Shown: positions 1 through 15,654, counted from the stretch's first letter. The stretch is DNA of 24,000 nucleotides from Verrucomicrobiota bacterium (GCA_039028175.1 JBCCIR010000044.1:9413-33412), one strand, 5' to 3'. Notes: a model not told the origin generated them from the letters alone. Translations and numbers: made by a program.

Positions 1-451
1 CACCGCGGCGGACTTCGTGTTTCCAGGAATCGAGTTCGAGATCGGCGACGCGGAGGACGGATGAGTCGGAAGCATCGGTGGCGTCGCTCGGCGCGGCGCG
101 GCGGATGAGGGCTTCGATGCGGGCTTCGAGTTCGGAGAAGGAGAAGGGTTTGACCATGTAATCGTCGCCGCCGGCGCGGAGGCCTTTGACGCGGTCGTCG
201 ACGGAGCGTTTGGCGCTGAGGATGAGGACGGGGGTGGTGATTTTTTCGGCGCGCATTTCCTCGATGATGGAGAGGCCGTCGGTGCCGGGGAGCATGATAT
301 CGACGACGGCGGCGTCGTAAGGGCCGATCTGGGCGAGATCGGAGCCTTCATCGCCGTCGTGAGCGACGTCGACGGTGTAACCGGATTCGCGGAGGCCTTT
401 GGCGATATAGGCGGCGATGGTTTCGTCGTCTTCGATGACCAGGATTTTCAT
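1..451 (-). CDS. OmpR/PhoB-family response regulator (REC plus the start of the winged-helix domain). Partial: the C-terminus runs off the left edge of the window.
   Basis: Absent from the ORF track because it is open at the window edge. My manual reverse-complement translation from the ATG at 451-449 gives MKILVIEDDETIAAYIAKGLRESGYTVDVAHDGDEGSDLAQIGPYDAAVVDIMLPGTDGLSIIEEMRAEKITTPVLILSAKRSVDDRVKGLRAGGDDYMVKPFSFSELEARIEALIRRAAPSDATDASDSSVLRVADLELDSWKHEVRRG. The receiver signature is present (EDD, D in VVDIMLPG, LSAK, KPF). It is followed by an OmpR-type effector-domain start (L.V.DL.LD...H.V.R.G). Confidence 0.85.
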   Translation of the reverse strand, partial: MKILVIEDDETIAAYIAKGLRESGYTVDVAHDGDEGSDLAQIGPYDAAVVDIMLPGTDGLSIIEEMRAEKITTPVLILSAKRSVDDRVKGLRAGGDDYMVKPFSFSELEARIEALIRRAAPSDATDASDSSVLRVADLELDSWKHEVRRG

Positions 452-643
452 ATTGGATGGATGCGGAGGGGGAGAGTTTTGCGCTGTAACGATAAGGGAC
501 TCAGTCGGCGCGGTCACCTTACCATTTTGTAATGATTCGGAAAGCTTTGGGTAATTAGGGGGAGCGAGAATGGCACTGCGATTGAATGGCGGGTTACAAC
601 CCGCAGCAGAAATAACATCAAAGTGAAGAAGGAGAAAAACGAA

Positions 644-2128
644 ATGAAACAGACAACCATCGTTGCTGTGGTACTTGCGAGTGCATTTGGCCTCGTATTT
701 GCCGTGGCGGAGAAAATGGAGCCATTGGCGCCGAAACTGTCGATTGACGGGTCGGAGCCGCTGCGGACGGGACCCCGTGGGGGGTATGCCGACGTGGTTG
801 AGAATGTGGGCCCCAGTGTCGTGAGTGTTTTCACTTCGCGCGAGGTTGCCTCGGCGGGAGGAAATGCGCCGGACATGCGCGGGTTCTTCGATTCACCGAT
901 GTTCCGAGAGTATTTTGGAGATCGGGGACGCGAGATGCCGAAGGGCTGGCAGAACGTTCCGCGAGGTGCGCCTCAGCGTGAGGGCTTGGGATCCGGAGTG
1001 ATCTTGAGTGCTGACGGATACATTCTGACGAACAATCATGTGGTAGCGAGAGCGGACAAGATCAAAGTGCGTCTCAGCGACGGCGACGAGCATGTGGCCG
1101 AGTTGATTGCGACGGATCCTGCGAGCGACCTTGCGGTGATCAAGATTGATGCCACGGATTTGCCGGCGGCGACGCTTGGTGACAGCAGCACCTTGCGTGC
1201 CGGGGATTTTGTCCTGGCGATTGGATCGCCGTTTGGGCTTACGCACACGGTGACCTCCGGTATTGTGAGCGCGATTGGGCGCAACAACCTTGATATCACG
1301 GGTTATGAGAACTTCATCCAGACGGATGCGTCGATTAATCCGGGGAATTCGGGTGGTGCCTTGATTGACAGCCGGGGCCGGGTGATTGGAATCAACACGG
1401 CGATCTTCTCCCGTTCGGGAGGGAATGTCGGGATTGGTTTCGCGATTCCGGTGAACATGGCGGTCGACATTGCGAGTCAGTTGATTGACGACGGTGAGAT
1501 CAATCGCGGATACCTTGGTATCTCGATGGGTCCCTTGACCGACGAATTGGCGGAAGCGTTGGACGTGGAAGCTGAGGGAGTGGTTGTGAACGACGTGATG
1601 CCGAAGACCCCGGCTGCGAAGGCGGGATTTGAGGCGGGCGACGTGATTGTTGAAGTTGGCGGCGAGCCGGTTGAGAACGGCGCGGAGCTTCGGTTCCTTG
1701 TGGGTGGCACGAGCCCCGGCGAGGAAATCGACTTCAAGGTTCGTCGTGGCGGCAAAGAGATGACGCTTACGGCGGAGATTGGAGAGATGCCTGCGGACCT
1801 GTTGAGTGCCGTCGGCCCGGCGAAAGCGGAGCCTGAGATCATCGAAGATGGGGCCCTTGAGGGGGTTCGTCTTGGTGAGCTCGACGCCGAGACACGCGAG
1901 AAGCTTGAGTTGCCGAAGTCTGCCGAAGGAGTTGTGGTGCTGGAAGTAGTGCCGGGTTCCAAGGCGGCGGAGGCGGGTCTCCTGGCGGGGAACGTGATCA
2001 CGGAGATCAACCGTGAAGCGGTGACCACGCCGAAAGAGGCTTATAATTTAGCAGCTAGTCGTGGTGAGAAAGCGACTCTACTGCGCGTAACGGACGGAAA
2101 GCTTAATCGCTTCCTGGCGATTGGCTGA
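644..2128 (+). CDS. htrA: Periplasmic serine endoprotease of the DegP/HtrA family (trypsin-like domain plus two PDZ domains)
   Basis: ORF 623..2128. I prefer the ATG at 644, which is preceded by AAGGAG (aaggagaaaaacgaaATG) and gives a signal peptide MKQTTIVAVVLASAFGLVFA. The catalytic triad context is present: TNNHVV (His), DLAVIKI (Asp), GNSGGAL (Ser). Two PDZ-like regions follow (GVVVNDVMPKTPAAKAGFEAGDVIVEVGG and GVVVLEVVPGSKAAEAGLLAGNVITEINR). Confidence 0.9.
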   Translation: MKQTTIVAVVLASAFGLVFAVAEKMEPLAPKLSIDGSEPLRTGPRGGYADVVENVGPSVVSVFTSREVASAGGNAPDMRGFFDSPMFREYFGDRGREMPKGWQNVPRGAPQREGLGSGVILSADGYILTNNHVVARADKIKVRLSDGDEHVAELIATDPASDLAVIKIDATDLPAATLGDSSTLRAGDFVLAIGSPFGLTHTVTSGIVSAIGRNNLDITGYENFIQTDASINPGNSGGALIDSRGRVIGINTAIFSRSGGNVGIGFAIPVNMAVDIASQLIDDGEINRGYLGISMGPLTDELAEALDVEAEGVVVNDVMPKTPAAKAGFEAGDVIVEVGGEPVENGAELRFLVGGTSPGEEIDFKVRRGGKEMTLTAEIGEMPADLLSAVGPAKAEPEIIEDGALEGVRLGELDAETREKLELPKSAEGVVVLEVVPGSKAAEAGLLAGNVITEINREAVTTPKEAYNLAASRGEKATLLRVTDGKLNRFLAIG

Positions 2129-2202
2129 GGTTACGCCGGTGGAGGCCGGTCATTCCCTGACGGTGGCATTGATGGTAGCTGCCGTGACCGGAATTCTCAA
2201 AC

Positions 2203-2251
2203 CACGAAGTGACGCACGCACTCGTCCCCCCGGGTGCGTGCGTTCTTCGTG
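2203..2251 (+). terminator. Strong GC-rich hairpin 75 nt downstream of the htrA stop. Candidate intrinsic terminator or RNA stability element, with no canonical U-tract.
   Basis: cacgaag-tg-acgcacgcac(tcg)-tccccc-(cgg)gtgcgtgcgt-t-cttcgtg. Perfect 10-bp core arms lie at 2212-2221 and 2234-2243. The core extends by 3 more pairs into the loop, and by a 7-bp outer stem at 2203-2209 and 2245-2251. A T-run (gagttttta) only appears about 20 nt later. Confidence 0.4.
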
Positions 2252-2352
2252 TACGGGAGGGGGAGTTTTTACAGAAGGAAACGAAGATCGCCAAGGAATG
2301 GGTTGTGGGAGAGGGAGGCCACTCTTCTTTTAAGATGAGGGTGGCAGGGGTC

Positions 2353-2381
2353 TTGACCGTGATTGGGACTTGGGGCAGGGT
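2353..2381 (+). promoter_or_regulatory. Candidate sigma70-like promoter, TTGACC-N17-CAGGGT, ending 7 nt before the ATG at 2389. This would make the mRNA essentially leaderless.
   Basis: TTGACC at 2353-2358, a 17-nt spacer, CAGGGT at 2376-2381, ATG at 2389. The same TTGACC-N17-(T)AGGGT arrangement recurs at 10978-11006. The -10 hexamer is a poor match to TATAAT, so this is weak. Confidence 0.2.
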
Positions 2382-2388
2382 GGGCGGC

Positions 2389-2625
2389 ATGTCGAAGAAG
2401 AAGAAGCATGTGTCGATGAAGCGGAAGGTGGCTTTGTTTTTGAGTTACTGGGGGTGTGCGGCGGTGGTGGCGGCGTTGGCGATTTTTTATGTGGAGGAGC
2501 TGATGCGTCCGGTGACCTTGATTTTGATCGTGGGGGGGACGGTGGTTTTTGCTCTCGTTTCCACGATTGTGCATGTGAAGCAGGGGAAGCACAGTGCGAT
2601 CGATGATATTGCGGACCGATTTTGA
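2389..2625 (+). CDS. Small (78 aa) two-pass membrane protein, hypothetical
   Basis: Internal ATG of ORF 2209..2625. The sequence MSKKKKHVSMKRKVALFLSYWGCAAVVAALAIFYVEELMRPVTLILIVGGTVVFALVSTIVHVKQGK has a basic N-terminus followed by two hydrophobic helices. Codon third positions are G/T-rich, like the other + strand genes. The stop lies 4 nt before the next start. Confidence 0.55.
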   Translation: MSKKKKHVSMKRKVALFLSYWGCAAVVAALAIFYVEELMRPVTLILIVGGTVVFALVSTIVHVKQGKHSAIDDIADRF

Positions 2626-2629
2626 AGTA

Positions 2630-3190
2630 ATGAGAGCGTTTTGTTTGTTGGTATTGGTTGGCGTGGTGCTGAGTGGTTGTGTCACGACGCCAACGGTCGT
2701 GACGGAATCGGGTCCGGGGGAATCGATCTCGGATTACAAGACTTACCGGTGGTTTTTGGAGGCGGAGGACGATCCGGACATCAACCCGTTGAGCAATATG
2801 CCGGACATTTACAAGAAAGTGCAAAGCTCGGTGGATGCGGCGATGGCGGCGAAGGGGTATCGTAAGGCCTCGGGGAATGCGGCGGGGATGCAGATCGGCT
2901 TTTTGATCGTGGTGAAGCGGGGGATGGATACGTCGATCTTGGATCAGTATTTCGGGTCGACGGCGGAGGAGGCGATCACGGAGGTGGACGAGCGGATTCC
3001 GGGGATGAAAGTGGATGATTATCGGAAGGGGAGCCTGGTTTTGGATTTTCGTGAGAACGGCACGGAAGATTTCATTTGGCGCGGGGCCTATGACACGAAC
3101 ATCAAGGCGCAGCAGACGCTGGAGGAAACGGGGGCGCGGATTGACGAGGCGGTGACGGCGATTTTTGCGAAGGTGCCGGAGGCGAGGTAG
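2630..3190 (+). CDS. DUF4136-like outer-membrane or periplasmic lipoprotein
   Basis: Internal ATG of ORF 2594..3190. There is a signal peptide with a lipobox, MRAFCLLVLVGVVLSGC. The C-terminal block GSLVLDFRENGTEDFIWRGAYDTNI matches the DUF4136 pattern as I recall it (G.L.vD..d......vWrG.a). No HMM has been run. Confidence 0.75.
   Translation: MRAFCLLVLVGVVLSGCVTTPTVVTESGPGESISDYKTYRWFLEAEDDPDINPLSNMPDIYKKVQSSVDAAMAAKGYRKASGNAAGMQIGFLIVVKRGMDTSILDQYFGSTAEEAITEVDERIPGMKVDDYRKGSLVLDFRENGTEDFIWRGAYDTNIKAQQTLEETGARIDEAVTAIFAKVPEAR
3122..3190. repeat. Direct repeat copy 1 (69 bp). This is the authentic last 22 codons plus the stop of the DUF4136-like gene.
   Basis: gaggaaacgggggcgcggattgacgaggcggtgacggcgatttttgcgaaggtgccggaggcgaggtag. 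It matches 4057-4125 at 65 of 69 positions by my alignment. Confidence 0.9.
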
Positions 3191-3212
3191 GAGGAGACGG
3201 CCGTGTCTCTCT

Positions 3213-3875
3213 TTAGTGCTGGTGCCAAATTCTCCGGCGATGGAGAAGGGCGGCGAGGCCTGCGAGTCCGACCAGCATTGTGCGAGAGGGTTCGGGAATA
3301 ATTGATCCGGTAATGAGGAGGTCGGCTGAGCCGACGAAGTTTCCATCGGGTTCGATGTCGAAGGTGCCTGTCGTTCCATCGGCTTGGAAGCCGTAGAGGC
3401 GGAATTGGGCGGAACTCACACTGGGAGGGCCGAAGAGATTGATGAGTTGGGTTTCGCCCGAGGCTGAGACTGAGTCATCGGTGAAGATGGTGGCGAAGGG
3501 GCCGCCGTTGAAACTAGCTTGGATGGCGATCTCGGAAGGGCCGGTGGGAGACCGGTCGTAACGGATACTCAGTCGGTCGAGATCGTAGGGGGTGGTCGAT
3601 GTGAATCCCCAGGAGAGGAAGTCCTGGTTTATTATGGCGTCGGCGAGGGTGCCGTCGACCGTCCAATTATTTGAATTGAACGAGCTGCCGCTTGCCGAGT
3701 TCAGTCCGGGGCCGCGCGCCAGGTTGTCGCCCGTGACACCTGTGCCTTGGATGGACGGGGGCAGTGAGGTTCCGGCGGCAGAATCATAAGCGAGGATGTT
3801 GGCGGCCTGCGTGTCCGTGGCGAAGGCGGCCATCAGGAGTGATCCGGAGACGATAGCGGTGAGAAGAGAGCGCAT
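3213..3875 (-). CDS. PEP-CTERM sorting-domain secreted protein
   Basis: 220-aa ORF. The signal peptide is MRSLLTAIVSGSLLMAAFATDTQA. The C-terminus IPEPSRTMLVGLAGLAALLHRRR is the PEP motif, a TM helix and a basic cluster, as in the PEP-CTERM/exosortase sorting signal. The body is Ser/Gly/Thr-rich. Confidence 0.85.
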   Translation of the reverse strand: MRSLLTAIVSGSLLMAAFATDTQAANILAYDSAAGTSLPPSIQGTGVTGDNLARGPGLNSASGSSFNSNNWTVDGTLADAIINQDFLSWGFTSTTPYDLDRLSIRYDRSPTGPSEIAIQASFNGGPFATIFTDDSVSASGETQLINLFGPPSVSSAQFRLYGFQADGTTGTFDIEPDGNFVGSADLLITGSIIPEPSRTMLVGLAGLAALLHRRRIWHQH

Positions 3876-4056
3876 GGATTCGGTTGGTTGATAGGGATTG
3901 CATGTCTCGGGGATTCAATTCTTAGGGAGCACAATCCGGGCCAGAACGTTTGCGAAACGGGGGGATTTCGAGAGTAAATGACAAGCGTGACAGAATCGTC
4001 ATGCCTTCATTTGAGTTCCGGGTAAGTGTTCACCTACGTGGTTTCGGGGTCTTAAC

Positions 4057-4125
4057 GAGGAGACGGGGGTGCGGATTGATGAGGCGGTGACGGCGATTTT
4101 TGCGAAGGTGCCGGAGGCCAGGTAG
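4057..4125. repeat. Direct repeat copy 2 (69 bp). An orphan, non-translatable copy of the 3' end of the DUF4136-like gene (a gene remnant).
   Basis: gaggagacgggggtgcggattgatgaggcggtgacggcgatttttgcgaaggtgccggaggccaggtag. In frame it would read EETGVRIDEAVTAIFAKVPEAR*. The frame is closed by a TGA at 4012-4014 with no ATG between that stop and the repeat. Its first 10 nt (gaggagacgg) also occur at 3191-3200, immediately after copy 1. Confidence 0.9.
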
Positions 4126-4142
4126 GGCTTTCGTAGGGTCAG

Positions 4143-4391
4143 CTATCTGTTGAGAAGGGAGGCGATAATCTCACCCGTTGCGGCGATTAGGACCGGGGGT
4201 AGCAGGGCCAAGTAGCCGAACTCTACAGGAGTCACCACTTTTCTGACGAGTGCCGCGACGGAGACGAGTGCGAAGAAAAGGAGAATAGGAGCCACCAAGT
4301 TAAACGAAACGGGCGACCCTGTTATGCTCTGGATGGCCAACACTATGCCGTAGCCCCAAAACGGCGTACACCATGTGATTTTTTTGATCAT
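4143..4391 (-). CDS. Small (82 aa) three-helix membrane protein, hypothetical
   Basis: MIKKITWCTPFWGYGIVLAIQSITGSPVSFNLVAPILLFFALVSVAALVRKVVTPVEFGYLALLPPVLIAATGEIIASLLNR. The ATG start is followed by hydrophobic segments. It lies in a low-skew, lower-GC islet. I recognise no family. Confidence 0.55.
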   Translation of the reverse strand: MIKKITWCTPFWGYGIVLAIQSITGSPVSFNLVAPILLFFALVSVAALVRKVVTPVEFGYLALLPPVLIAATGEIIASLLNR

Positions 4392-4425
4392 AGGATCGTA
4401 AGAATACTATGCCATGAAGCAATTT

Positions 4426-4704
4426 TTACCCCGCGAATCTACGAGCTAGTGTCGCAATGACAACGACTACTATCCACGCCGCCGTCATTGGATAGAGACC
4501 CTTCACAACAAACTCTGCAATTGAGATTCTTCGTGAGATGACGAGAGCCATTGCGGGAACGGCAGTGAGGGGGAAGCAGGCAGTCACGACAGAGCCGAAG
4601 GCGGATTCCCCACAGACAGCCCAGACGATTCCTACGATGAAGGGGGCGGCCCACATGGGCCATGTCCAGTTGCGTTCCCAGAAAGTTTGGGTTCCTTGCG
4701 ACAT
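4426..4704 (-). CDS. Small (92 aa) three-helix membrane protein, hypothetical. Possible diverged paralogue of the 82-aa protein.
   Basis: MSQGTQTFWERNWTWPMWAAPFIVGIVWAVCGES...ALVISRRISIAEFVVKGLYPMTAAWIVVVVIATLARRFAG. It shares W-x2-P-x-W, G/F, ALV and EF landmarks with the 82-aa protein at a constant 6-7 residue offset. Confidence 0.55.
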   Translation of the reverse strand: MSQGTQTFWERNWTWPMWAAPFIVGIVWAVCGESAFGSVVTACFPLTAVPAMALVISRRISIAEFVVKGLYPMTAAWIVVVVIATLARRFAG

Positions 4705-4749
4705 TCTCGGGTCATTTGAGGGTGTTTTGCGCTGCTGTCGTTTTCGAAT

Positions 4750-5103
4750 CTAACCCAGCTTTGTTTTCTCATCATTCGGATGATGGATGGAATCTTGATT
4801 TAGAATTTCCCGAAGTCCGAGATAGGCAAGCAGTGTCCCTATTGGAAATTGGAAGGCGGCCACGACGAGTAGGGCTATTCCTAAGGCTTTCCCGGGTTTT
4901 GAATTCAAATTTAGGGAAGCCAAAATTTGAACTGCTCCCAAACCGCCAATGAGGAAAAAAAACCAGATTAGCTGAGAAGGGAGGTATTTGAAACTCGAGG
5001 CTAGACCCAACGCCAAAGCCGCGCCTCCTCCGATGATTTGCAAAATGCCCAGAGCCATCAGGACGCCTTTGGCAGTCGGATACGGGTCAGGATTCTGTTG
5101 CAC
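4750..5103 (-). CDS. Small membrane protein (117 aa from GTG 5103, or about 102 aa from ATG 5058), hypothetical
   Basis: The hydrophobic Gly/Ala/Leu-rich helices are LMALGILQIIGGGAALALGLASSF, LIWFFFLIGGLGAVQILASL and ALGIALLVVAAFQFPIGTLLAYLGL. The GTG at 5103 is only 8 nt from the stop of the upstream REC-AlbA_2 gene. The start codon is uncertain. Confidence 0.5.
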   Translation of the reverse strand: MQQNPDPYPTAKGVLMALGILQIIGGGAALALGLASSFKYLPSQLIWFFFLIGGLGAVQILASLNLNSKPGKALGIALLVVAAFQFPIGTLLAYLGLREILNQDSIHHPNDEKTKLG

Positions 5104-5111
5104 GAGATGGG

Positions 5112-6032
5112 CTACTTAGGGATGCGTTGATTGATGTAGGCGAGGACTTCTGAGGGGGTGAGTTGTTGGGTGCCGTTGCCGGCTCGGATGTAGAAGATTT
5201 CGTCGTTTTCGCGACGGAAGAACACGGGTTCTTTGGAGGGGCGGCATTGGATGGCGAGGATGCGTTTGCCGTCGAGATCGAGGACGTCCGAGCGGATGAA
5301 GGGGGCGAATTCGACGCCGACATGTTTTTTGAAGAGCGCGTTCCAGTGGAGGAGGAGTTTGTCTTCGTTGGCGAACTGGTCTTTATCGAGGCCGAGGGCG
5401 ACGCCTTCGTCATCGACGCCGACGAGTAGTGTTCCACCGCGGCTATTGAGGTATGCGGCGACGGTTTTGAGGCAGCTGTTCTCCATGCGTTTGTCGGATT
5501 TGTCGGTATGGAGATTCCAGCGGAGGGTGGATTTGAATTCGACGCGATCGGTTTCGCCGCCGGCGACGAGGGATTGAATGTCGGATTCCGAGAGGTCGGG
5601 GAGGTCTTCAGTGGTTTGGTCTTTGAGCTGGGCGTTCTCGTCCTTGAGGGTCATGAGGCGGTGGTAGCTGTCGAGGTGGGTGCGGACGCGGGCGACGACT
5701 TCTTCGAACTGGAAGGGTTTCTCGATGTAATCGGCGGCGCCGAGGTTGAGGCCTTTGATCTTGTCTTCGGTGTGGCCGCGGGCGGAGAGGAACACGATCA
5801 CGGCGTCGGCGGTTTGGTCGTCGGCTTTGAGGCGGCGACAGGTTTCGTATCCGTCGATGCCGGGCATGTTGATATCGAGGAGGATGAGTTGGGGCCGGGT
5901 TTCCTTGGCGATGTCGAGGGCTTCTTCCCCGGACTGGGCGACGAGGAGTTCGTATCCTTCCGCGGCGAGGGCTTCGGAGAGGACCTGGAGGTTGGTGAGG
6001 GTATCGTCGACGAGGAGGACGCGGTCGGGCAT
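5112..6032 (-). CDS. Response regulator with an N-terminal receiver domain and a C-terminal AlbA_2 (Schlafen-like, 'divergent AAA/putative DNA-binding', PF04326-like) domain
   Basis: REC: VLLVDD, LILLDINMPG (Asp53), FLSARG, EKPF. After a linker of about 30 aa comes SESDIQSLVAGGETDRVEFKSTLRWNL...LKTVAAYLNSRGGTLLVGVDDEGVALGL...ILAIQCRPSKEPVFFRRENDEIFYIRAGNGTQQLTPSEVLAYI. As I recall it, this follows the AlbA_2 pattern: E..EfK at the start, N..GG.l.iGV.d.G, p.y...... fyiR.G..t..l. No HTH or other output domain is visible. Confidence 0.8.
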   Translation of the reverse strand: MPDRVLLVDDTLTNLQVLSEALAAEGYELLVAQSGEEALDIAKETRPQLILLDINMPGIDGYETCRRLKADDQTADAVIVFLSARGHTEDKIKGLNLGAADYIEKPFQFEEVVARVRTHLDSYHRLMTLKDENAQLKDQTTEDLPDLSESDIQSLVAGGETDRVEFKSTLRWNLHTDKSDKRMENSCLKTVAAYLNSRGGTLLVGVDDEGVALGLDKDQFANEDKLLLHWNALFKKHVGVEFAPFIRSDVLDLDGKRILAIQCRPSKEPVFFRRENDEIFYIRAGNGTQQLTPSEVLAYINQRIPK

Positions 6033-6043
6033 GGCGGGCAGAG

Positions 6044-9000
6044 TTAGAGGGACTCGAGTTTATCGGCGAGGGCATCGAGGCCTTTGAAATCGAAGGCGCG
6101 AACGAGGTTGCCGATCGATTCACCGGCGGGTTTGGTGGCGGGATCGGCGGCGAGTTCTTCGGCGATGGATTTGAGAGCGGTGAGGTTCTTGATTTTGAGA
6201 GCGGCGCGGAATTTTTCGAGGGCGGCGGCGGGGATGGCGGTTAGTTCGGCGCTGCCTCCGCTTTGGGATTCGTCTTCGGAAGCGGGTGTGTTTTCGATGC
6301 GGGTGGAGTCGAACGTGGCGCCGATGTGTTTTTTGAGGAGGGCGACAAGTTCTTCCATGCGGAAGGGCTTGCCGAGAAACCCATCGAAGCCGGCGGCGAT
6401 GGCTTTTTCGCGGAACTCGGGGAAGACGCTGGCGGTGACGGCGAGGACGATGTGGTGTTTGAGTTCGTCATCGGCGCGGATGGCCTTGATGGCTTCGATG
6501 CCGTTCATGCGCGGCATACGAACATCCATGAGAACGATGGCGATTTTGTCGTTATTGGCGCGGAGGGTGTCGACGGCGGTATCTCCGTCGTCAGCGAGGA
6601 GGATATCGAAGCCGGCGCCGGTGAGCATTTGGTTGAGGATATCGCGATTGGCTTCGCGATCGTCGGCGACGAGGATGGTGAATTCCTGACCGGGAGCGAG
6701 GGCGTGGTGAGCGGCTTCAGAATCACCTTCGGTTTCGTTCCAGGCGAGGTCTTTCTTGTTGGCTTCTTCGAGGGGGAGAGTGACGGTGAAGGTGCTGCCT
6801 TTGCCTTTTTCGCTGGCGACTTCGAGGGTTCCGTCGAGGACTTCGGCGAGGCGTTTGGTGATGGAGAGTCCGAGGCCGGTGCCGCCGGCGGCTTTTCCGG
6901 CTTCGACTTGTTTGAAGGGATCGAAGATTTGTTCGAGTTCGTGCGGGGTCATTCCGACGCCGCTGTCGACGACATCGAAGCGGAGGCTCCCTTTGGGTTT
7001 TTCGGCGACGCGGAGGGTGACTTCTCCATCGTCGGTGAACTTGACGGCGTTGCCGAGGAGGTTGACGAGGATTTGGCGAATCTTTGGCGCATCGGAGACG
7101 ATGCCTTGAGGGACTTCGGGGGATACATCGACGTTGAAATCGACGCCTTTATTGGTGGCGCGTTGTTGGACGACATCGCCGACGCTTTTGATGAGTTTGT
7201 GGAGGTCGCAGGGGGCGAGATCGACATCGATGCGACCGGCTTCGATTTTCGAAAGGTCGAGGACGTCGTTGATGAGGGCGAGGAGATGATCGCCGCAGTT
7301 GACGATGGCGTCGAGGCTGGTTTTCTGGCCGGTGGTGATATCGGAATCGCGTTGGAGGATTTGGGAGTAGCCGAGGATGCCATTGAGGGGGGTGCGGAGT
7401 TCGTGACTCATGTGGGAGAGGAACTCGCTTTTGGCGCGATTGGCGGCATCGGCGTTTTCGCGGGCGACCTCGAGTTCTTCGGACAGTTTTTTCGCTTCGG
7501 TGATATCGATGATGACACCGTCGAGGTGGTCGACTGAGCCGTCGTCGCGGAAGGCGGCGCGCCCGCGCTCGCCAACCCAGCGGATCTCGCCGTCAGCGCG
7601 GACGATACGGTATTGGATATCCCATGGTTCCTTTTTATTGACGGCGGCGTCGACCTCATCGACAACCTGCTGGCTATCTTCGGTGCTGATAACGCTATCG
7701 TAGGTGCGGACCGCGTTATCGATGAATTCTGTGGCGGGGTATCCGGTGATTTCGCGGACGTTCTCGCTGATAAACTGCATGGTCCAATCGTCGTCGTTCA
7801 GGCAGCGGTAGACGGTGCCGGGAAGGTTGGCGACGAGGGTGCGGAAGCGTTCCTCTTTCTTGATGATTTCCGCGCCGATTTCTTTTTGCTTGGTGATGTC
7901 TTCCTCAATGGCGACGAAGTGGGTGGTGTTTCCGTCGTCGTCGCGGATGGGGGAAAGGGCGGCGGAGACCCAGAAGATGGAGCCGTCTTTTTTGCGGTTG
8001 CAGAATTCGCCGTGCCATTCGCGACCGTCGGTGAGAGTGTTCCAGACCTCGTCGTAGAGGGCGGGTTCCTGGAGGCCGGACTTGAGGATTCGTGGGGTTT
8101 GGCCGATCGCTTCGTCGGGGGTGTATCCGGTGACTTCTGTGAAGCGCGGGTTTACGTATTCGATATCGCCGTCGGGATCCGTGATGAAGACGATGGCGGT
8201 GCCTTGTTCGATGGCTTGGTTGAGTTTTCGGAGGCTGGCTTCGGCCTCTTTGCGTTCGCTGATATCGCGAATGGCGGCGACGGCCATGGTGGTGCCGGCT
8301 TCGTGGAATGGGCTGAGGCCGATTTCGATGGGGAACTCGCTGCCGTCTTTTCGTTTTCCGTGCAGTTCGAGATCGGCACCCATGGAGCGGGTGCGGGGTG
8401 CCGCGAAATATTCGTTCAGGTGGGCCCCGTGGCCGCTGCGAAAGTCCTCGGGCATGAGGTCTTCGACCGTCATCTTGGCGATTTCTTCCCGGGAGTAGCC
8501 GAAAATTTGCGAGACTTGATCATTGGAGCGGCTGATGGCTCCCTTGGAATCGACGATGATCATGGCGTCGGGCGCGGATTCGAGGAGATCGGAGAGGGTG
8601 GTTTCGCGGGCGGTTTCGAGTTTTGCTTCGCGGTCGGCGACCTTGCGTTGCATGGTGGCGAAGGCGCCGGCGAGTTCTTGGATTTCATCGTGGGTGCGGA
8701 TGTCGTCGAGGGGGACATCTTCGGCGCCGTCGGCGATTTGGAGGACTTTGCCGCGCAGGTTGGTGATGGGGCGGGCGACGCGGCCGGAGCTGAGGTAGAT
8801 GGTGGCGATCGTGAGGATCAGGGCCATGGCGAAGGCGCTGCCGAAGATGCCTTTTCGTTCGTGGAAGTCGGCCATGAGCTCCGCGGAATCGGCGGTGATG
8901 AAGAAGGTCCAGCCGGTAGAAGGGATGGGGGCGTGGGCGATGAAGACCTGGTCGAGGCCCATGAAGTTATCGAGGAGAATGACGCCGGTGGAGCCATTGA

Positions 9001-9778
9001 GCATTTCGTAGGCTTGATCTCTGAGGTGAGGGGTGCCTTCGACGTCGAGGGCGTCATCGATAGTGGCGTGCATGGTTTCGTCTTCGTAGGGGGAGTAGAC
9101 GAATTGTCCATTGGGGGCGATGATGAAGAAGACGTGACCTTCGGCGATGGTGTCGCCGATTTCCTGTTGGAGGGTTTCGAGATCGATATCGACGGTGGTG
9201 ACGCCCCAGAAGTTGTCGTGGCGGGTGAAGGGGACGGAATAGGTGGTCATGATGATGTTTCCGGCGCCTTCATCGAAGTACGGGGCGGTCCAGATGCCCT
9301 TTCCTTCGTTCTTGGGGCGGTGCCACCATTCGGTCGTTTCGTCGCCATACCAGTCGTAGGCTTCTTCATCGATATTCATTTCTATGTAGCCTCTGCCTTT
9401 TTCTTTGTCGCGATAGACGTAGGGGCTGAAGAGGCCTTCGACGTCTCTGTAGGTGCCGGGTTCGAAGGCCATGGCGGCGCCATAGACACGGTCGTTCATG
9501 GAGACATTGGATTTGAGCAGGCCGTAGATTTGCGACTCTTGAAGATTGGGAACGCGTTGAATGAAGCGGGCGGTGGTATCGGCGACGCGGGCGGGTTTGG
9601 AGATATATTCGTCGAAGCGGGCGGCGGCGATTTTTGCCATGTGTTCCATTTGGCGTTCGCCGGTTTCGACGACCTGGTGTTTGGCGAATTTTAGGACCCA
9701 GATGAGCGCGGCGGTGTAGATGGCCACGGTGGGGAGGCCGATGAAGAGGATCATTTTGCCGCGGATGGGGAGGCGCAT
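6044..9778 (-). CDS. Hybrid sensor histidine kinase (TM, Cache-like periplasmic domain, TM, HAMP, 3x PAS, HisKA, HATPase_c, REC, then a His-less C-terminal tail)
   Basis: 1244 aa.
- TM1: ILFIGLPTVAIYTAALIWVLKF.
- Periplasmic region with Cache-type blocks: YGAAMAFEPG, GIWTAPYFDEGAGNIIMTTYSVPF, GVTTVDIDL.
- TM2: IFGSAFAMALILTIATIYLSS, followed by a HAMP domain.
- Three PAS/PAC modules: APDAMIIVD..., TAIVFITDPDGDIEYVNPRF..., LPGTVYRC...DIQYRIVRADGEIRWV.
- H-box SHELRTPLNGILGY (His792).
- N/G boxes: LVNLLGNAVKFT, DSGVGM, GGTGLGLSI.
- Receiver: ILVADD...IVLMDVRMP (Asp1085)...GKPF. Confidence 0.95.
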   Translation of the reverse strand: MRLPIRGKMILFIGLPTVAIYTAALIWVLKFAKHQVVETGERQMEHMAKIAAARFDEYISKPARVADTTARFIQRVPNLQESQIYGLLKSNVSMNDRVYGAAMAFEPGTYRDVEGLFSPYVYRDKEKGRGYIEMNIDEEAYDWYGDETTEWWHRPKNEGKGIWTAPYFDEGAGNIIMTTYSVPFTRHDNFWGVTTVDIDLETLQQEIGDTIAEGHVFFIIAPNGQFVYSPYEDETMHATIDDALDVEGTPHLRDQAYEMLNGSTGVILLDNFMGLDQVFIAHAPIPSTGWTFFITADSAELMADFHERKGIFGSAFAMALILTIATIYLSSGRVARPITNLRGKVLQIADGAEDVPLDDIRTHDEIQELAGAFATMQRKVADREAKLETARETTLSDLLESAPDAMIIVDSKGAISRSNDQVSQIFGYSREEIAKMTVEDLMPEDFRSGHGAHLNEYFAAPRTRSMGADLELHGKRKDGSEFPIEIGLSPFHEAGTTMAVAAIRDISERKEAEASLRKLNQAIEQGTAIVFITDPDGDIEYVNPRFTEVTGYTPDEAIGQTPRILKSGLQEPALYDEVWNTLTDGREWHGEFCNRKKDGSIFWVSAALSPIRDDDGNTTHFVAIEEDITKQKEIGAEIIKKEERFRTLVANLPGTVYRCLNDDDWTMQFISENVREITGYPATEFIDNAVRTYDSVISTEDSQQVVDEVDAAVNKKEPWDIQYRIVRADGEIRWVGERGRAAFRDDGSVDHLDGVIIDITEAKKLSEELEVARENADAANRAKSEFLSHMSHELRTPLNGILGYSQILQRDSDITTGQKTSLDAIVNCGDHLLALINDVLDLSKIEAGRIDVDLAPCDLHKLIKSVGDVVQQRATNKGVDFNVDVSPEVPQGIVSDAPKIRQILVNLLGNAVKFTDDGEVTLRVAEKPKGSLRFDVVDSGVGMTPHELEQIFDPFKQVEAGKAAGGTGLGLSITKRLAEVLDGTLEVASEKGKGSTFTVTLPLEEANKKDLAWNETEGDSEAAHHALAPGQEFTILVADDREANRDILNQMLTGAGFDILLADDGDTAVDTLRANNDKIAIVLMDVRMPRMNGIEAIKAIRADDELKHHIVLAVTASVFPEFREKAIAAGFDGFLGKPFRMEELVALLKKHIGATFDSTRIENTPASEDESQSGGSAELTAIPAAALEKFRAALKIKNLTALKSIAEELAADPATKPAGESIGNLVRAFDFKGLDALADKLESL

Positions 9779-9781
9779 ATC

Positions 9782-9834
9782 AGAGGTCGGAGGTCAGGAG
9801 TCAGAGGTCGGAGGTCGGAGGTCGGAGGTCAGGA
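9782..9834. repeat. Tandem heptamer repeat, 7.5 copies of RGAGGTC (+ strand). It fills the entire spacer between the cyclase stop and the kinase start.
   Basis: agaggtc ggaggtc aggagtc agaggtc ggaggtc ggaggtc ggaggtc agga. The kinase ATG is at 9778-9776 and the cyclase TGA is at 9831-9829. In mRNA (minus) sense it reads UCCU(GACCUCC)n...GACCUCUGAUAUG. Confidence 0.9.
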
Positions 9835-10893
9835 TTTTTTGTTGAGGAGGAAGTAGGTTTCCATGGGGCCTTTGCCTTTGATTTCGACGGGGCCTCGAGA
9901 TTCGAAGTCGAATTTTCCGTCGAGGAGGGCTTTGGTATCGGCGGAGATGTGGATGCGATTTTTTTCTCCGGAGGATTCCATGCGGCTGGCGGTATTTACG
10001 GTGTCGCCCCAAAGGTCGTAGGCGAATTTTTTCTCGCCGATGACGCCGGCGACGACGGGGCCGCTGTGGATGCCGATGCGGAGGCCGACTTCGGGTTGGC
10101 CGGATTGGTTGAGCGAGGGGATTTCGTTGATGAGATCGAGGGCGAAGGAGGCGACGGCGGCGGCGTGATCGGGGACGGGATCGGGGACGCCGCCGGCGAG
10201 CATGTAGGCATCGCCGATGGTTTTGATTTTCTCCAGGTGATGTTTTGCGGCGAGTTGATCCATCATGGAGAACATGTCGTTGAGGAGCGTGACGACTTCT
10301 CCGGGGTGCAGTTCGGCGGAGAGTGGTGTGAAGCCGACGAGATCGCAGAAGAGGATGGAGGCTTCGGGGATGGCGTCGACGATGTTGCGTTCGCTTTCCT
10401 TGAGGCGATCAGCGATGGATTGGGGGAGGATATTGAGGAGGAGGGCATCGGCCTGTTGGTGCATGCGTTGGACTTCTTCCTTGGCGCGCCGGAGTTCGAG
10501 CTGGGTATTGACGCGGGCGACGACCTCTTCGAACTGGAAGGGTTTGCTGACGTAATCGACCGCACCGAGTTTGAGGCCCTGGACCTTGTCCTGGACGGAG
10601 TCACGAGCGGAGAGGAAGATGACGACAATTTCTTTTGTTTCGGGGTTGGCTTTGAGTTTTTCGCAGGTTTCGAAGCCGTCCATACCGGGCATGTTGATAT
10701 CGAGGAGGATGAGGGCGGGTTGGGCTTCTCCGGCGATCTCGAGGGCTTCGGCGCCGGACATGGCGATGAGGAGTTCGTAGCCTTGTTCCTCGAGGGCTTG
10801 GTAGAGGACCTGGAGGTTGGTGGGGTTGTCGTCGACGAGGAGGACCTGATTATTCAGGGTCGATTGGTCGGCGCTGGGAAGAGGCGTGGTCAT
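9829..10893 (-). CDS. Response regulator fused to a class III adenylate (nucleotidyl) cyclase domain
   Basis: 354 aa. REC: VLLVDD, LILLDINMPG (Asp65), FLSARD, SKPF. Cyclase domain: ASILFCDLVGFTPLS and KIKTIGDAYMLAGG (the two metal Asp residues plus the purine-selecting Lys), GIHSGPVVAGVIG, FAYDLWGDTVNTASRMES (the adenine-selecting Asp plus the transition-state Asn/Arg). Confidence 0.9.
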   Translation of the reverse strand: MTTPLPSADQSTLNNQVLLVDDNPTNLQVLYQALEEQGYELLIAMSGAEALEIAGEAQPALILLDINMPGMDGFETCEKLKANPETKEIVVIFLSARDSVQDKVQGLKLGAVDYVSKPFQFEEVVARVNTQLELRRAKEEVQRMHQQADALLLNILPQSIADRLKESERNIVDAIPEASILFCDLVGFTPLSAELHPGEVVTLLNDMFSMMDQLAAKHHLEKIKTIGDAYMLAGGVPDPVPDHAAAVASFALDLINEIPSLNQSGQPEVGLRIGIHSGPVVAGVIGEKKFAYDLWGDTVNTASRMESSGEKNRIHISADTKALLDGKFDFESRGPVEIKGKGPMETYFLLNKKS

Positions 10894-10977
10894 CCGGGGT
10901 GTTATTGAGTGAACGCTAGCACAGGCTGGCGTGGAGAGAAGCCTGAATCGGGCGTGGGAGAATGGGTTGGGTAGGGT

Positions 10978-11006
10978 TTGACCGGGGCAGTTGTCTTTTC
11001 TAGGGT
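10978..11006 (+). promoter_or_regulatory. Candidate sigma70-like promoter, TTGACC-N17-TAGGGT, ending 9 nt before the ATG at 11016. The leader would be absent or very short.
   Basis: TTGACC at 10978-10983, a 17-nt spacer, TAGGGT at 11001-11006, ATG at 11016. It lies in the 122-nt divergent region between the cyclase operon and the DUF2092 gene. It is motif-level evidence only. Confidence 0.25.
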
Positions 11007-11015
11007 GTAGGGACG

Positions 11016-11828
11016 ATGAGACGCGAGCGACAGAAGCGGGTGTTGTGGATGGTGGGGGTGGTGACCGTTTTGATTGGTGTGTCTGGCTGCGAGACGCTGG
11101 GGCCGCAGGGGCCGGAGGAGGTGGATGCGAAGGCGGCGGAAGTTTTGACGGGAATGTCGGAGACGATCGGGGGGCGAGAGGCGATGACCTTTCGGGCGAC
11201 GCGGGTGACGGACCGGGAGTTGGCGGATTTTTTGAATGTGCCGACGAGTTCGCGGGCGGAGGTCATGGTGAGTGCACCGAATCGTTTTCGGGCGAAGATA
11301 TCGGACCCGGCGACGGTGCAGAGTGCATTTTTTGACGGGAGCACGCTGACGCTTTATCACCATGGGGAGAAATTGTATGCATCGGAGCGGGTGGCGCGTC
11401 GTTCGACGAGCGGGGCCTTGGACGTGATTGAGCGGCGTTATGGATTTATGCCGCCCTTGGCGGATTTCGTGGTGTTGAATCCGTATGAAAATCTGACGCG
11501 CTATATGACGACGGTGACGTATGAGGGCGAGGAGTGGATGGGGGGAGTGCGATGTGATCATGTATCGGCGACGGGTGAGGAAGTGGATTGGGATATTTGG
11601 GTGGGGGTGAAGGATCGGTTGCCGCGACGGTATACGGTGACGGCGAAGGAGATGGAGAGCCGGCCGCAGTGGCGGACGGATTTCAAGGGTTTTGATTTTG
11701 GTGCGGGTTTTCCGGAGGAGCATTTTACGTTTGTGCCGCCGGAGGGGGCGCATGCGATTCCGATGATTCGCAAGGGGGACGACACGGAGGATGTGATGCG
11801 GAAGGCGCGGGAGCTTTTAGAGGAATAA
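11016..11828 (+). CDS. DUF2092-like (LolA-fold) periplasmic lipoprotein
   Basis: 270 aa. The signal peptide and lipobox are MRRERQKRVLWMVGVVTVLIGVSGC. Blocks FFDGSTLTLYHHGEKLYA, MPPLADFVVLNPYENL, YEGEEWMGGVRCDHVSATGEEVDWDIWV and LPRRYTVT match my recollection of the DUF2092 family. No HMM has been run. Confidence 0.75.
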   Translation: MRRERQKRVLWMVGVVTVLIGVSGCETLGPQGPEEVDAKAAEVLTGMSETIGGREAMTFRATRVTDRELADFLNVPTSSRAEVMVSAPNRFRAKISDPATVQSAFFDGSTLTLYHHGEKLYASERVARRSTSGALDVIERRYGFMPPLADFVVLNPYENLTRYMTTVTYEGEEWMGGVRCDHVSATGEEVDWDIWVGVKDRLPRRYTVTAKEMESRPQWRTDFKGFDFGAGFPEEHFTFVPPEGAHAIPMIRKGDDTEDVMRKARELLEE

Positions 11829-11861
11829 CGGGGAAACAATAAACGTCAGGTAAGGAGACTT

Positions 11862-12134
11862 ATGAAGAAGAGCACGGTTGGAGTGTTGGTATTGGTTTTT
11901 GTTTTGTTGATGTTTGTGCCGCCGACGGCGCCACCGGAGGCGGAGGCGAGCCGGATTACGGCGCGGTATGGGGCGCCGAAAGCGACTTTACGGCGGGGTT
12001 ATCTGACGATTTTGCGGCGCGACGCCAAGATTTTGCAGATTGACGGGCAGCGGTATTATTTGCAGGACGGAGTATTGTTTCAGCCTGCTTATCACAACGG
12101 GCGGCTGGTGTACGTCCCGGTGGGGCGGCTTTAG
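11862..12134 (+). CDS. Small (90 aa) secreted protein, hypothetical
   Basis: A good SD precedes the start (taaggagacttATG). The signal peptide is MKKSTVGVLVLVFVLLMFVPPTAPPEAEA. The mature part contains a G.RYYLQDGVLFQP....GRLVYVPV motif, which resembles the Y-Y-x-dG-x-F/Y ... Y-V-V-P repeats seen in small periplasmic proteins. Confidence 0.6.
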   Translation: MKKSTVGVLVLVFVLLMFVPPTAPPEAEASRITARYGAPKATLRRGYLTILRRDAKILQIDGQRYYLQDGVLFQPAYHNGRLVYVPVGRL

Positions 12135-12171
12135 GAGGGGATTTTGCGAGACAGTTAACCGACAAGAAATC

Positions 12172-12468
12172 ATGACGAAGCAAGGCGAAGAAGATCCATT
12201 GGACGACGTATTCAGTTTTATCAAGCGTCAGCGTGACGAGTTGCAGGTGAAGATGCACCTGGCGCAGGCGGATGCGAAGGATGAGTGGGAGAAGCTGGAG
12301 GCGAAGTGGGTGGATTTGAGTGAACGGGCGGAGCCGTTGACGGGTGCGGTGAAGGAGGGGGCGGAGACGGTGGGTGAGCAGGCGAAGAACGTGGCGGGGG
12401 CGGCGAAGGATGTGGCGGCGCGGGAGTTGAAGGAGGGGTATGAGCGGTTGCGTAAGCTTTTGGAGTAG
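12172..12468 (+). CDS. Small (98 aa) acidic, probably all-helical cytoplasmic protein, hypothetical
   Basis: Internal ATG of ORF 12040..12468, because the upstream part overlaps the previous gene. The sequence MTKQGEEDPLDDVFSFIKRQRDELQVKMHLAQADAKDEWEKLEAKWVDLSERAEPL...LKEGYERLRKLLE has no signal peptide or TM segment and has a heptad-like charge pattern. Confidence 0.5.
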   Translation: MTKQGEEDPLDDVFSFIKRQRDELQVKMHLAQADAKDEWEKLEAKWVDLSERAEPLTGAVKEGAETVGEQAKNVAGAAKDVAARELKEGYERLRKLLE

Positions 12469-12507
12469 GGGGAGGTATTTCTGAGCGGCGCTGTCGTTCT
12501 TTTGGGG

Positions 12508-14160
12508 ATGAATCTACTCTCTCTTCCGCAGTTCAAGCGCAATGCAAGGCGTTTTGAGCAGATTGTGCGTGTGCTGGCCAAGTATGGGTTGGCGGATTTT
12601 TTACGGGAGCGTGATCCGGATTTCATCAGCCGACAGCTGAAGAGTGCGGAGGGGGAGCAGCTGTCGAAGTTTTCGCGGGCGGAGCGGGTGCGCATGGCGG
12701 TGACGGAGTTGGGGACCACGTTCATCAAGCTGGGGCAGATGCTGAGCACGCGGGCGGATTTGATTGGGCCGGATTTGGCGAGGGAGTTGACGCAGTTGCA
12801 AGCGAACACGCCTCCGGATTCCTGGGAAACGGTTCGGGCGACGATTGAGAGCGAGTTGGGGGCGCCGGTGGATCAATTATTTGCGCGGTTTGAGGAGGAG
12901 CCGATGGCATCGGCGTCGATCGCGCAGGCGCACCGGGCGGAACTGAAGGATGGGGAGGCGGTGGTGGTGAAGGTGCAGCATGCGGGGATCGAGGACACGG
13001 TGGTGAACGATTTGGAGATATTGGTGGCGTTGGCGGAGTTGGCGGAGCAGCACAGCAAGGAACTGGCGTTGTATCAGCCGACGGCCACACTTGGGGAGTT
13101 TCGGCGGAACCTGTTGGCGGAGTTGGATTTCGGGCGTGAGGAGCAGAACCTATTGAAGTTTCGGAGTAATTTTGAGCGGGACGAGACGGTGCACATTCCG
13201 AAGCCGTATCCGAAGTATTCCGCGAAGCGGGTGTTGACGATGGAATTGATGGAGGGGGTTCCGATTGCGAAGACGGGGGAGTTGGATGCGGCGGGGGTGG
13301 ACAAGAAGGAGTTGGCGTCACGTGGGGTGACGCTTTACCTGGAGATGATATTCCGGGATCGGGTGTATCACGCGGATCCGCATCCGGGAAATATTTTGGC
13401 GATGCCGGGGAACGTGGTGGGGTTATTGGATTTCGGGATGGTGGGGCATTTGGACGACAGCACGCGGGAGAGTTTTGAGGAATTGATACATGGATTTCTT
13501 TTGAAGGATGGTGAGTTACTCACGGACTGCAGTTTGCGATTGGGGGTAGCGCCGCCGGACATCGATCGTGATTTGCTGCAGAGTGACCTGGAGCAATTTA
13601 TCGCCGTGAATCTGACGGGATCGTTGAAGGATATGGACATCACCCGGGCCTTGGGTGGATTTACGGACATGGTGCGGCGGCACCGGGTGGTGCAGAAGCC
13701 GGGTATCTCGCTCTTGATCAAAGTGATCGTGATGTTGGACGGGACGGGGCGGATTCTTGATCCAGATTTTAATTTGGCGGGGTTGTTGCAGCCTTATTAC
13801 AAGAAGATGACGGAGCGGCGCTTGTCGCCGGAGAATATTTTTCGGAGAGTGCAGAAGTCGGTGCGGGATTGGGACAGTTTGTTTCAATCGCTGCCGCGGG
13901 ATTTGGCGGACATTATCCGGCGGGTGCGGCGGGGGACCTTGGATGTGCATTTGGAGCACCGGCATTTGGACACGGTGACGAACCGGTTGGCGTTCGGGAT
14001 CGTGACGGCGGCGTTGTTCTTGGGTTCGACATTGTTGTGGCATGCGGAGATTCCGCCGGTGTTGTTTGGTATTTCGTTGCCGGGGTTGGCGGGGGTTCTT
14101 TTTTCGTTGTGGCAGGTGTGGAAGCTTTGGCGGGCGATCAAGAAATCGGGTGGGTTGTAG
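12508..14160 (+). CDS. ABC1/UbiB (AarF) family atypical protein kinase with a C-terminal membrane anchor
   Basis: ATG at 12508; the track begins at TTG 12502. Family blocks: KLGQMLSTRADL, ASIAQAHRAEL.DGE.VVVKVQHAGI, DFGREEQN, HADPHPGNIL, LLDFGMVG. Two C-terminal hydrophobic helices are present (LAFGIVTAALFLGSTLLW and ISLPGLAGVLFSLWQVW). Confidence 0.9.
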   Translation: MNLLSLPQFKRNARRFEQIVRVLAKYGLADFLRERDPDFISRQLKSAEGEQLSKFSRAERVRMAVTELGTTFIKLGQMLSTRADLIGPDLARELTQLQANTPPDSWETVRATIESELGAPVDQLFARFEEEPMASASIAQAHRAELKDGEAVVVKVQHAGIEDTVVNDLEILVALAELAEQHSKELALYQPTATLGEFRRNLLAELDFGREEQNLLKFRSNFERDETVHIPKPYPKYSAKRVLTMELMEGVPIAKTGELDAAGVDKKELASRGVTLYLEMIFRDRVYHADPHPGNILAMPGNVVGLLDFGMVGHLDDSTRESFEELIHGFLLKDGELLTDCSLRLGVAPPDIDRDLLQSDLEQFIAVNLTGSLKDMDITRALGGFTDMVRRHRVVQKPGISLLIKVIVMLDGTGRILDPDFNLAGLLQPYYKKMTERRLSPENIFRRVQKSVRDWDSLFQSLPRDLADIIRRVRRGTLDVHLEHRHLDTVTNRLAFGIVTAALFLGSTLLWHAEIPPVLFGISLPGLAGVLFSLWQVWKLWRAIKKSGGL

Positions 14161-14247
14161 AGGATTGCCGGGAGGCTTTACAAGCGGGAGTGGATGGCAA
14201 AGAGTCGGGGCGAGAGAGCGGGGATGGGTGGAAATTTTGGTATTAGG

Positions 14248-15621: not shown

Positions 15622-15654
15622 GGGAACGGCGTGGAGGGATTGGCGATTTTTTAG

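Follow-up and report, generated by a model that had tools for sequence, protein, structure and literature searches.

The stretch of DNA analysed here (the window) is 24,000 nucleotides (nt) long and belongs to a 5.8 Mb, 324-contig metagenome-assembled genome (MAG) of a Verrucomicrobiota bacterium, in which it lies at G000:C44:9413-33412. Within the window, a 982 bp islet at 4127-5108 is in all likelihood a small piece of foreign DNA that was acquired recently and has not been ameliorated to the composition of its host. The islet fills the gap between two convergent stop codons, one from a plus-strand lipoprotein gene and the other from a minus-strand gene for a REC-AlbA_2 response regulator, and it contains three small minus-strand open reading frames (ORFs), here named p117, p92 and p82. 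A recent, unameliorated acquisition had been proposed in an earlier note for 4126-5111, and that proposal is supported by the four-fold degenerate sites of the ORFs, by the bias of resident spacers, by the absence of the islet from a genome of the same genus and by the saturation of synonymous sites between the two genomes.

The skew in guanine over cytosine (GC skew) reaches ±0.3 to 0.45 across whole contigs of G000. At the four-fold sites of long ORFs, the mean content of G is 64% where the coding strand is the G-rich one and the mean content of C is 71% where it is the C-rich one, and clean C-rich-strand examples inside the window have 81–87% C. Gene orientation is balanced (902 versus 971 long resident genes) and resident spacers are biased too, with an oriented skew of 0.376 (n = 626 spacers). 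As the orientations are balanced and the spacers share the bias, we conclude that it is a strand-wide mutational pressure and not a codon preference.

The GC content of 4126-5111 is 0.514 and its skew is +0.073 (0.512 and +0.066 for the islet trimmed to 4127-5108), while the corresponding values for the surrounding 20 kb are 0.587 and 0.31. When compared with 23,641 windows of 986 bp, which form a strongly skewed background, a skew as low as that of 4126-5111 was found in 1.2%, a GC content as low in 1.7% and both together in 0.3%. The trinucleotide distance between the islet and the genome mean is 1.81, which places it in the top 0.9% of 3,287 windows; the same measure is 0.97 for the REC-AlbA_2 gene, 1.02 for part of the kinase gene of the same operon and 0.88 for a neighbouring PEP-CTERM cassette at 3192-4056. 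Thus, the k-mer comparison suggested in the earlier note also sets the islet apart.

The difference extends to four-fold sites. Pooled over the three islet ORFs, these sites hold 36 A, 61 C, 37 G and 33 T, and the share of C (61/167, 37%) departs strongly from the resident expectation of 0.71 (binomial p = 1e-20). Individually, p82, p92 and p117 have four-fold C of 0.40, 0.39 and 0.32, compared with 0.87, 0.83 and 0.85 in the next three genes upstream. The four-fold GC of the islet ORFs is 0.55–0.67, leaving 34–45% A+T, and that of residents is 0.82–0.92. Codon choice differs for Leu, Ala, Thr, Ile and Val. In resident minus-strand genes, CTC accounts for 88% of Leu codons, GCC for 85% of Ala codons and ACC for 84% of Thr codons, while the corresponding figures in the islet ORFs are 29%, 44% and 7%, with TTG (0% in residents) at 24% and CTA at 21%. 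The description of the islet as lower in GC, lacking the strand bias and unlike its surroundings in codon choice was therefore accurate, and all eight of the G and C tallies per 60-nt line that accompanied it proved exact on recount.

Hydrophobic composition can be ruled out as the cause of the missing skew. Long membrane proteins encoded on the C-rich strand (grand average of hydropathy [GRAVY] > 0.5, at least 250 amino acids [aa], n = 53) keep the full bias, with a median whole-gene skew of 0.36 (5th percentile 0.25), a median GC content of 0.62 and a median four-fold skew of 0.83 (5th percentile 0.63). None of the 53 falls as low as the islet ORFs, for which the four-fold skew is 0.18–0.38, and the ORFs therefore lie outside the range of these proteins; a place within the range of other minus-strand genes was what the earlier note had said would overturn its reading. 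As the deviation is found at four-fold sites, amino-acid content plays no part in it. Long membrane proteins and four-fold sites were used in place of a control built from small ORFs, as the greedy ORF set from which that control was drawn was too contaminated by shadow frames to be usable. In a set of 19 hydrophobic small ORFs from the C-rich strand, the three islet ORFs among them, four-fold skew is bimodal. Non-coding status is ruled out as well: resident spacers are fully biased, so a low coding content or none at all does not account for the islet. The spacers inside the islet are too short to judge for bias. An RNA gene was also rejected, as Rfam returned no match up to E = 1 in 3000-6000 and ARAGORN found no gene.

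The features of the islet and its surroundings are as follows; G001 is the genome from the same genus.

2594-3190, plus strand: lipoprotein gene (Y), convergent with the operon, resident-like with a four-fold G of 0.78.
3122-3191, plus strand: repeat copy 1, formed by the 3' end of the lipoprotein gene; 3191 is the last position of left-flank synteny with G001.
3213-3875, minus strand: PEP-CTERM protein gene (TIGR02595, 17.3 bits, cut-off 16), between the repeat copies.
4057-4126, plus strand: relic repeat copy 2, the last 22 codons and stop codon of the lipoprotein gene, forming the left edge of the islet.
4125-4129 and 5109-5113: GGGCT, a 5-nt direct repeat read from the sequence.
4127-5108: the islet proper.
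4143-4391, minus strand: p82, 82 aa, hydrophobic (GRAVY 1.23), approximately three predicted membrane-spanning segments.
4426-4704, minus strand: p92, 92 aa, hydrophobic (GRAVY 0.90), approximately three predicted membrane-spanning segments.
4750-5103, minus strand: p117, 117 aa, predicted membrane protein with three to four predicted helices, GTG start.
5112-6032, minus strand: REC-AlbA_2 response-regulator gene (Pfam Response_reg 6e-29, SLFN_AlbA_2 2e-21), four-fold C 0.87.

Comparison with G001 revealed that the islet has no counterpart there. Orthologues of REC-AlbA_2 share 89% identity in G001 and 59–66% in four other members of the family (G011, G012, G014 and G021). To the right of the islet, 5109-16582 is homologous to contig C36 of G001 (81% DNA identity). 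To the left, homology over 4-3191 is to another contig of G001, C35 (83–87% identity; 83% for 515-3191), and it stops 1 nt beyond the TAG of the plus-strand lipoprotein gene, the G001 orthologue of which encodes 195 aa with a lipoprotein-like signal at its start. Apart from the 70-nt repeat copy at 4057-4126, nothing in 3192-5108 matched G001, and the islet DNA was not matched in G001 or in three other family members. Searches of 40 relatives and of 400 genomes sampled from the phylum did not find p117 either. Examination of the orthologous locus, as the earlier note advised, thus shows the islet to be absent and synteny to be broken at both of its edges. The right edge lies close to the REC-AlbA_2 stop, as had been stated, with homology to G001 beginning at 5109, 3 nt from the TAG at 5112-5114. 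The left edge directly follows the second repeat copy, which here measures 70 nt (4057-4126), compared with the 69 bp ending at 4125 in the earlier note; on this side, synteny breaks off 3–4 nt beyond the stop of the relic lipoprotein-gene end. The DNA or genes that follow the orthologues of the operon in G001, G012, G014, G021 and other MAGs are unrelated, and the operon in G001 ends with REC-AlbA_2. The suggestion that the islet genes are the last genes of the signalling operon consequently does not hold for the ancestral operon.

Both junctions in G001 adjoin different DNA that is also low in skew and in GC. In it lie a gene for a RayT/IS200-like transposase, a membrane ORF of 131 aa, an ORF of 170 aa whose N-terminus is hydrophobic and signal-like, and two longer ORFs. 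The ends of C35 and C36 overlap by 644 bp (93% identity) and are oriented as neighbours would be, and the gap in G001 is probably filled by approximately 5.3 kb of unrelated cargo. At the contig ends, L012:2-652 (from C36) and L024:2-1066 (from C35) each contain a gene for a REP-associated tyrosine transposase (RayT/IS200-like); the two are copies or alleles with 93% identity and are probably the cause of the break in the G001 assembly. GGGGC is present at both edges of the variable gap in G001 (L012 ~2505-2512 and L024 ~3390-3396). Together, GGGCT and GGGGC are compatible with an ancestral tail-to-tail arrangement TAG-GG(G)-CTA, with 2–3 nt between the convergent stop codons, for which they are weak evidence.

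The kinase and REC-AlbA_2 orthologues of G000 and G001 provide a measure of age. At 654 four-fold sites their identity is 0.679, compared with 0.651 expected from composition alone. As synonymous sites are saturated, any neutral sequence dating back to the common ancestor would by now look resident. The islet ORFs have a four-fold C of 0.37 and a four-fold GC of 0.55–0.67 despite this saturation, and on these figures the islet would have to be much younger than the split between G000 and G001.

From left to right, the gap region holds the end of the lipoprotein gene, an 865-bp cassette, the relic copy, the islet and REC-AlbA_2. The 70-nt direct repeat copies are 94% identical and differ at 4 positions, which a three-way alignment with G001 polarises as two derived changes in each copy; the relic copy at 4057-4126 shares 80% identity with the G001 orthologue of the gene end. 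The 865-bp cassette between them contains the PEP-CTERM gene only, without a recombinase, is resident-like (four-fold C 0.60, in addition to its low trinucleotide distance) and is absent from the G001 locus. Its layout resembles that of the sites at which elements integrate into gene ends. In Escherichia coli, phage 21 and the e14 element integrate into the 3' end of icd, duplicating the end of the gene. The 70-nt duplication here is alike in that the lipoprotein gene regains its end while a relic is left in a displaced position, where it forms the left border of the islet. It is unlike them in that only 865 bp and a single PEP-CTERM gene, with no recombinase, lie between the copies. If the repeat pair does represent integration into the 3' end of a gene, the relic would be the original gene end and the islet would have lain beyond it; the islet would then be older than the PEP-CTERM cassette, yet young relative to the species split. 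As the islet is outside the repeat pair, the gene-end mechanism does not explain its arrival.

Same-strand ORFs cover 882 of the 982 nt of the islet, an extent reached in only 0.8% of first-order Markov simulations (P = 0.008). Among 1.84 billion protein representatives, p117 has one homologue, the 109-aa P0003 (E 3e-16), to which it is 47% identical in a pairwise alignment that begins at residue 10 (E 2e-24). On the strength of this distant homologue, we regard p117 as a real gene. Since the alignment begins at residue 10, the region upstream of Met16 appears to be coding, and the start would most simply be the GTG at 5103, 8 nt beyond the REC-AlbA_2 stop. No related p117 locus was found in metagenome or viral contig collections. 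No candidate homologue of p92 was found in a set of 5.8 billion proteins, and p82 matched only itself in a large protein set. None of the three has a family match in Pfam, NCBIfam, PHROG or PADLOC, including p117 in Pfam at E ≤ 0.1 and any of the islet ORFs in PHROG at E < 0.2. Tandem duplication as the origin of p82 and p92 was rejected, as the similarity between them is not significant (BLASTP E 0.077, 21% identity).

Structural models add little. The AlphaFold2 model of p117 has four helices and is of low confidence (predicted local distance difference test [pLDDT] 65.8). The ESM Atlas model of p117 resembles DUF7144/DUF4233-type small membrane proteins, which are near p117 in size and helix count, with template modelling (TM) scores of 0.61–0.73 over approximately 100 residues, though TM-scores of small helical bundles such as these tell little. 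Unlike members of those families, p117 has no Pfam match, and both of its models are of low confidence (pLDDT 0.62 for the second). The ESM Atlas matches of p92 are all below 0.9 and serve as leads only.

Our preferred explanation for the islet is as follows. The donor would have had approximately 50% GC and no strong strand bias. Its DNA would have landed in the tail-to-tail gap between the plus-strand lipoprotein gene and the minus-strand REC-AlbA_2 gene, well after the split from the sister species. In the host, strand bias drives four-fold sites to approximately 80% G or C according to the strand, and the islet would have been resident too briefly to be reshaped. The GGGCT at both edges would be compatible either with a target-site duplication or with illegitimate recombination mediated by microhomology. 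No promoter-like or terminator-like match was found between the REC-AlbA_2 stop and p117, and with p117 only 8 nt behind REC-AlbA_2, transcription of the three islet genes, if it occurs, most likely depends on read-through from the signalling operon.

Several observations weigh against recent acquisition or leave parts of it less secure. No integrase, transposase, tRNA gene (ARAGORN) or inverted repeats were found for the islet. No donor was found in metagenome, viral, plasmid or phage collections, and P0003 is encoded on a contig of only 1.7 kb. The GGGCT match is only 5 nt long and may be due to chance, and the adjacency of C35 and C36 is drawn from the 644-bp end overlap alone. The case for p82 and p92 as genes consists solely of ORF length, strand arrangement and hydrophobic segments. 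Finally, G000 is a draft MAG, and a table of public contigs on 2400-6600 lists none over the islet, although a hole there proves nothing.

The islet does not have the hallmarks of the familiar kinds of mobile DNA. It is present once in G000, which rules out a repeated mobile element. An insertion sequence or transposon is not indicated, as in addition to being single-copy it has no terminal inverted repeats and no transposase. For a classical island or integrative element, the only direct repeat is the 5-nt GGGCT. A prophage lysis or holin-type cassette is not indicated either, with no PHROG match, no match to phage DNA and no lysin gene nearby.

One variant of the acquisition explanation specifies the route of entry, namely that a larger mobile element (a prophage, an integrative element or cargo carried by an insertion sequence) formerly filled this gap and later lost most of its length, mobility genes included, leaving the islet behind. 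The RayT/IS200-like transposase in the G001 version of the gap fits this, as does the presence of a phage-type integrase in other low-skew islets of G000, and the adjacent gene-end duplication resembles the attL/attR pair of elements that integrate into gene ends. However, the islet is outside that pair and not between its copies, neither its ORFs nor its DNA has a match in PHROG, PADLOC, plasmids or phages, and 3900-5250 contains neither inverted repeats nor a recombinase fragment. We therefore consider this route unlikely, while giving it some weight.

That the three genes are old residents, with a composition held by selection on codon usage or by a local mutational regime, is very improbable. 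C is still the commonest base at their four-fold sites (61, versus 33–37 for each of the others), and they are co-directional and tightly packed behind the operon. Against this, they are missing from an otherwise collinear locus in a genome of the same genus, p117 was not found in 440 other genomes, and resident membrane proteins and spacers are all biased.

There is also very little to recommend an artefact of assembly or binning, in which 1 kb of another organism or strain was joined in by the assembler. G000 consists of 324 contigs, the 70-nt repeat beside the islet breaks the unitig graph and the contig table has no depth over 4233-5360. However, the probable source run, a marine metagenome, holds 99% of the sampled words of 2900-6100, while runs X2 and X3 hold next to none. 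In the Logan unitigs of the source run, breaks occur at the 70-nt repeat, and the depth of the repeat unitig is 25 compared with 11 for its neighbours, a doubling that fits a true two-copy repeat. p117 is present on a 12,257-bp contig of the independent Logan assembly, far longer than the islet, as well as on the 35,084-bp MAG contig. An artefact would require two false joins within 1 kb, and both edges fall within 3–4 nt of flanking stop codons, unlike a chimeric join.

Hardly more credible is the birth of the ORFs de novo, or by very fast evolution, from a native spacer. Two of the three have no homologue, which speaks for such an origin, but DNA born from a native spacer would share the full bias of those spacers, and p117 has a 47%-identical homologue elsewhere. 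The last alternative, an inverted resident segment now midway in its shift to the opposite bias, can be dismissed: inversions are common in bacteria and the islet skew is near zero rather than reversed, but a half-flipped segment would keep the four-fold GC of 0.82–0.92 seen in residents instead of 0.55–0.67, and G001 has no homologous DNA in either orientation.

As the sister species carry wholly different cargo, each bounded by a similar short repeat, the point at which the lipoprotein and REC-AlbA_2 genes meet tail to tail could be a reusable landing site for an unrecognised site-specific or microhomology-guided insertion, though we judge this improbable. If true, promoter-less small membrane-protein genes placed behind the operon would give it new read-through outputs.

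Compositionally atypical islets of acquired genes are treated in PMC8461475 and PMC11811736. The islet described here is like known acquired orphan-gene islets in its atypical GC content, codon usage and k-mers, its absence from a sister species, its conserved flanks and its short genes without an assigned function. It is unlike them in being only 1 kb long, without an integrase, a tRNA gene or long direct repeats, and in that the strand asymmetry of its host makes the contrast mainly one of missing skew and not of a shift in GC alone. Lawrence and Ochman are said to have set out the amelioration model for horizontally acquired DNA, to which the recent-acquisition explanation appeals. Taken by itself, the islet is a routine gene gain; what is remarkable is the genome-wide strand bias that exposes it.

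The islet is one of many. When low-skew islets were defined by 900-bp windows with an oriented skew below 0.12, approximately 116 were found in G000, adding up to 210 kb or 4% of the genome, with a median length of 1.35 kb; 33 of them are within 1 kb of a contig end. When 20 large ORFs from the biggest islets were tested, 11 had no Pfam family, and the other tested ORFs include YadA-head adhesins, a type I restriction specificity subunit, a phage-type integrase, a sulfatase and a pectate lyase. Thus, 4127-5108 is a small and unremarkable member of this class, the contents of which are usual for a flexible genome.

Other parts of G000 depart from the strand bias on a larger scale. In contig C11, the skew passes from -0.46 to +0.29 at ~30000-45000, through approximately 15 kb near zero, and this region is a candidate replication origin or terminus. 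Big stretches, including C1:1-70000, and the entire contigs C29 and C43 (35–43 kb) are nearly free of skew and may be large mobile elements, plasmids or contigs binned in error.

Strong bias is also seen around orthologues of the REC-AlbA_2 gene. In two Verrucomicrobiota/Verrucomicrobiales MAGs of approximately 49% GC, the skew around the orthologous gene (L030, from G012, and L035) is 0.3–0.46, with the gene on the G-rich strand in both. As these loci are also skewed, a strong strand bias is common to genera of the family. A literature search found no description of a bacterium with comparable skew, which is no proof that none exists. Further REC-AlbA_2 orthologues, with 60–65% identity, are encoded in L028, L029 and L034, from MAGs labelled Pirellulaceae/Planctomycetaceae (Planctomycetota), where they make up the N-terminal part of 624–637-aa proteins. 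Given the length of these proteins, a fused form of REC-AlbA_2 with an extra C-terminal region exists.

For the signalling operon, these findings mean that an account of the ancestral Cache/PAS kinase - REC-AlbA_2 module should leave out the three small membrane proteins. Foreign genes that lack a promoter of their own seem to have been set down 8 nt behind a resident operon, a case in which expression by read-through can be tested. More generally, in a genome as strongly biased as this one, a lack of skew at four-fold sites picks out recent arrivals with great sensitivity and does so independently of gene calls.

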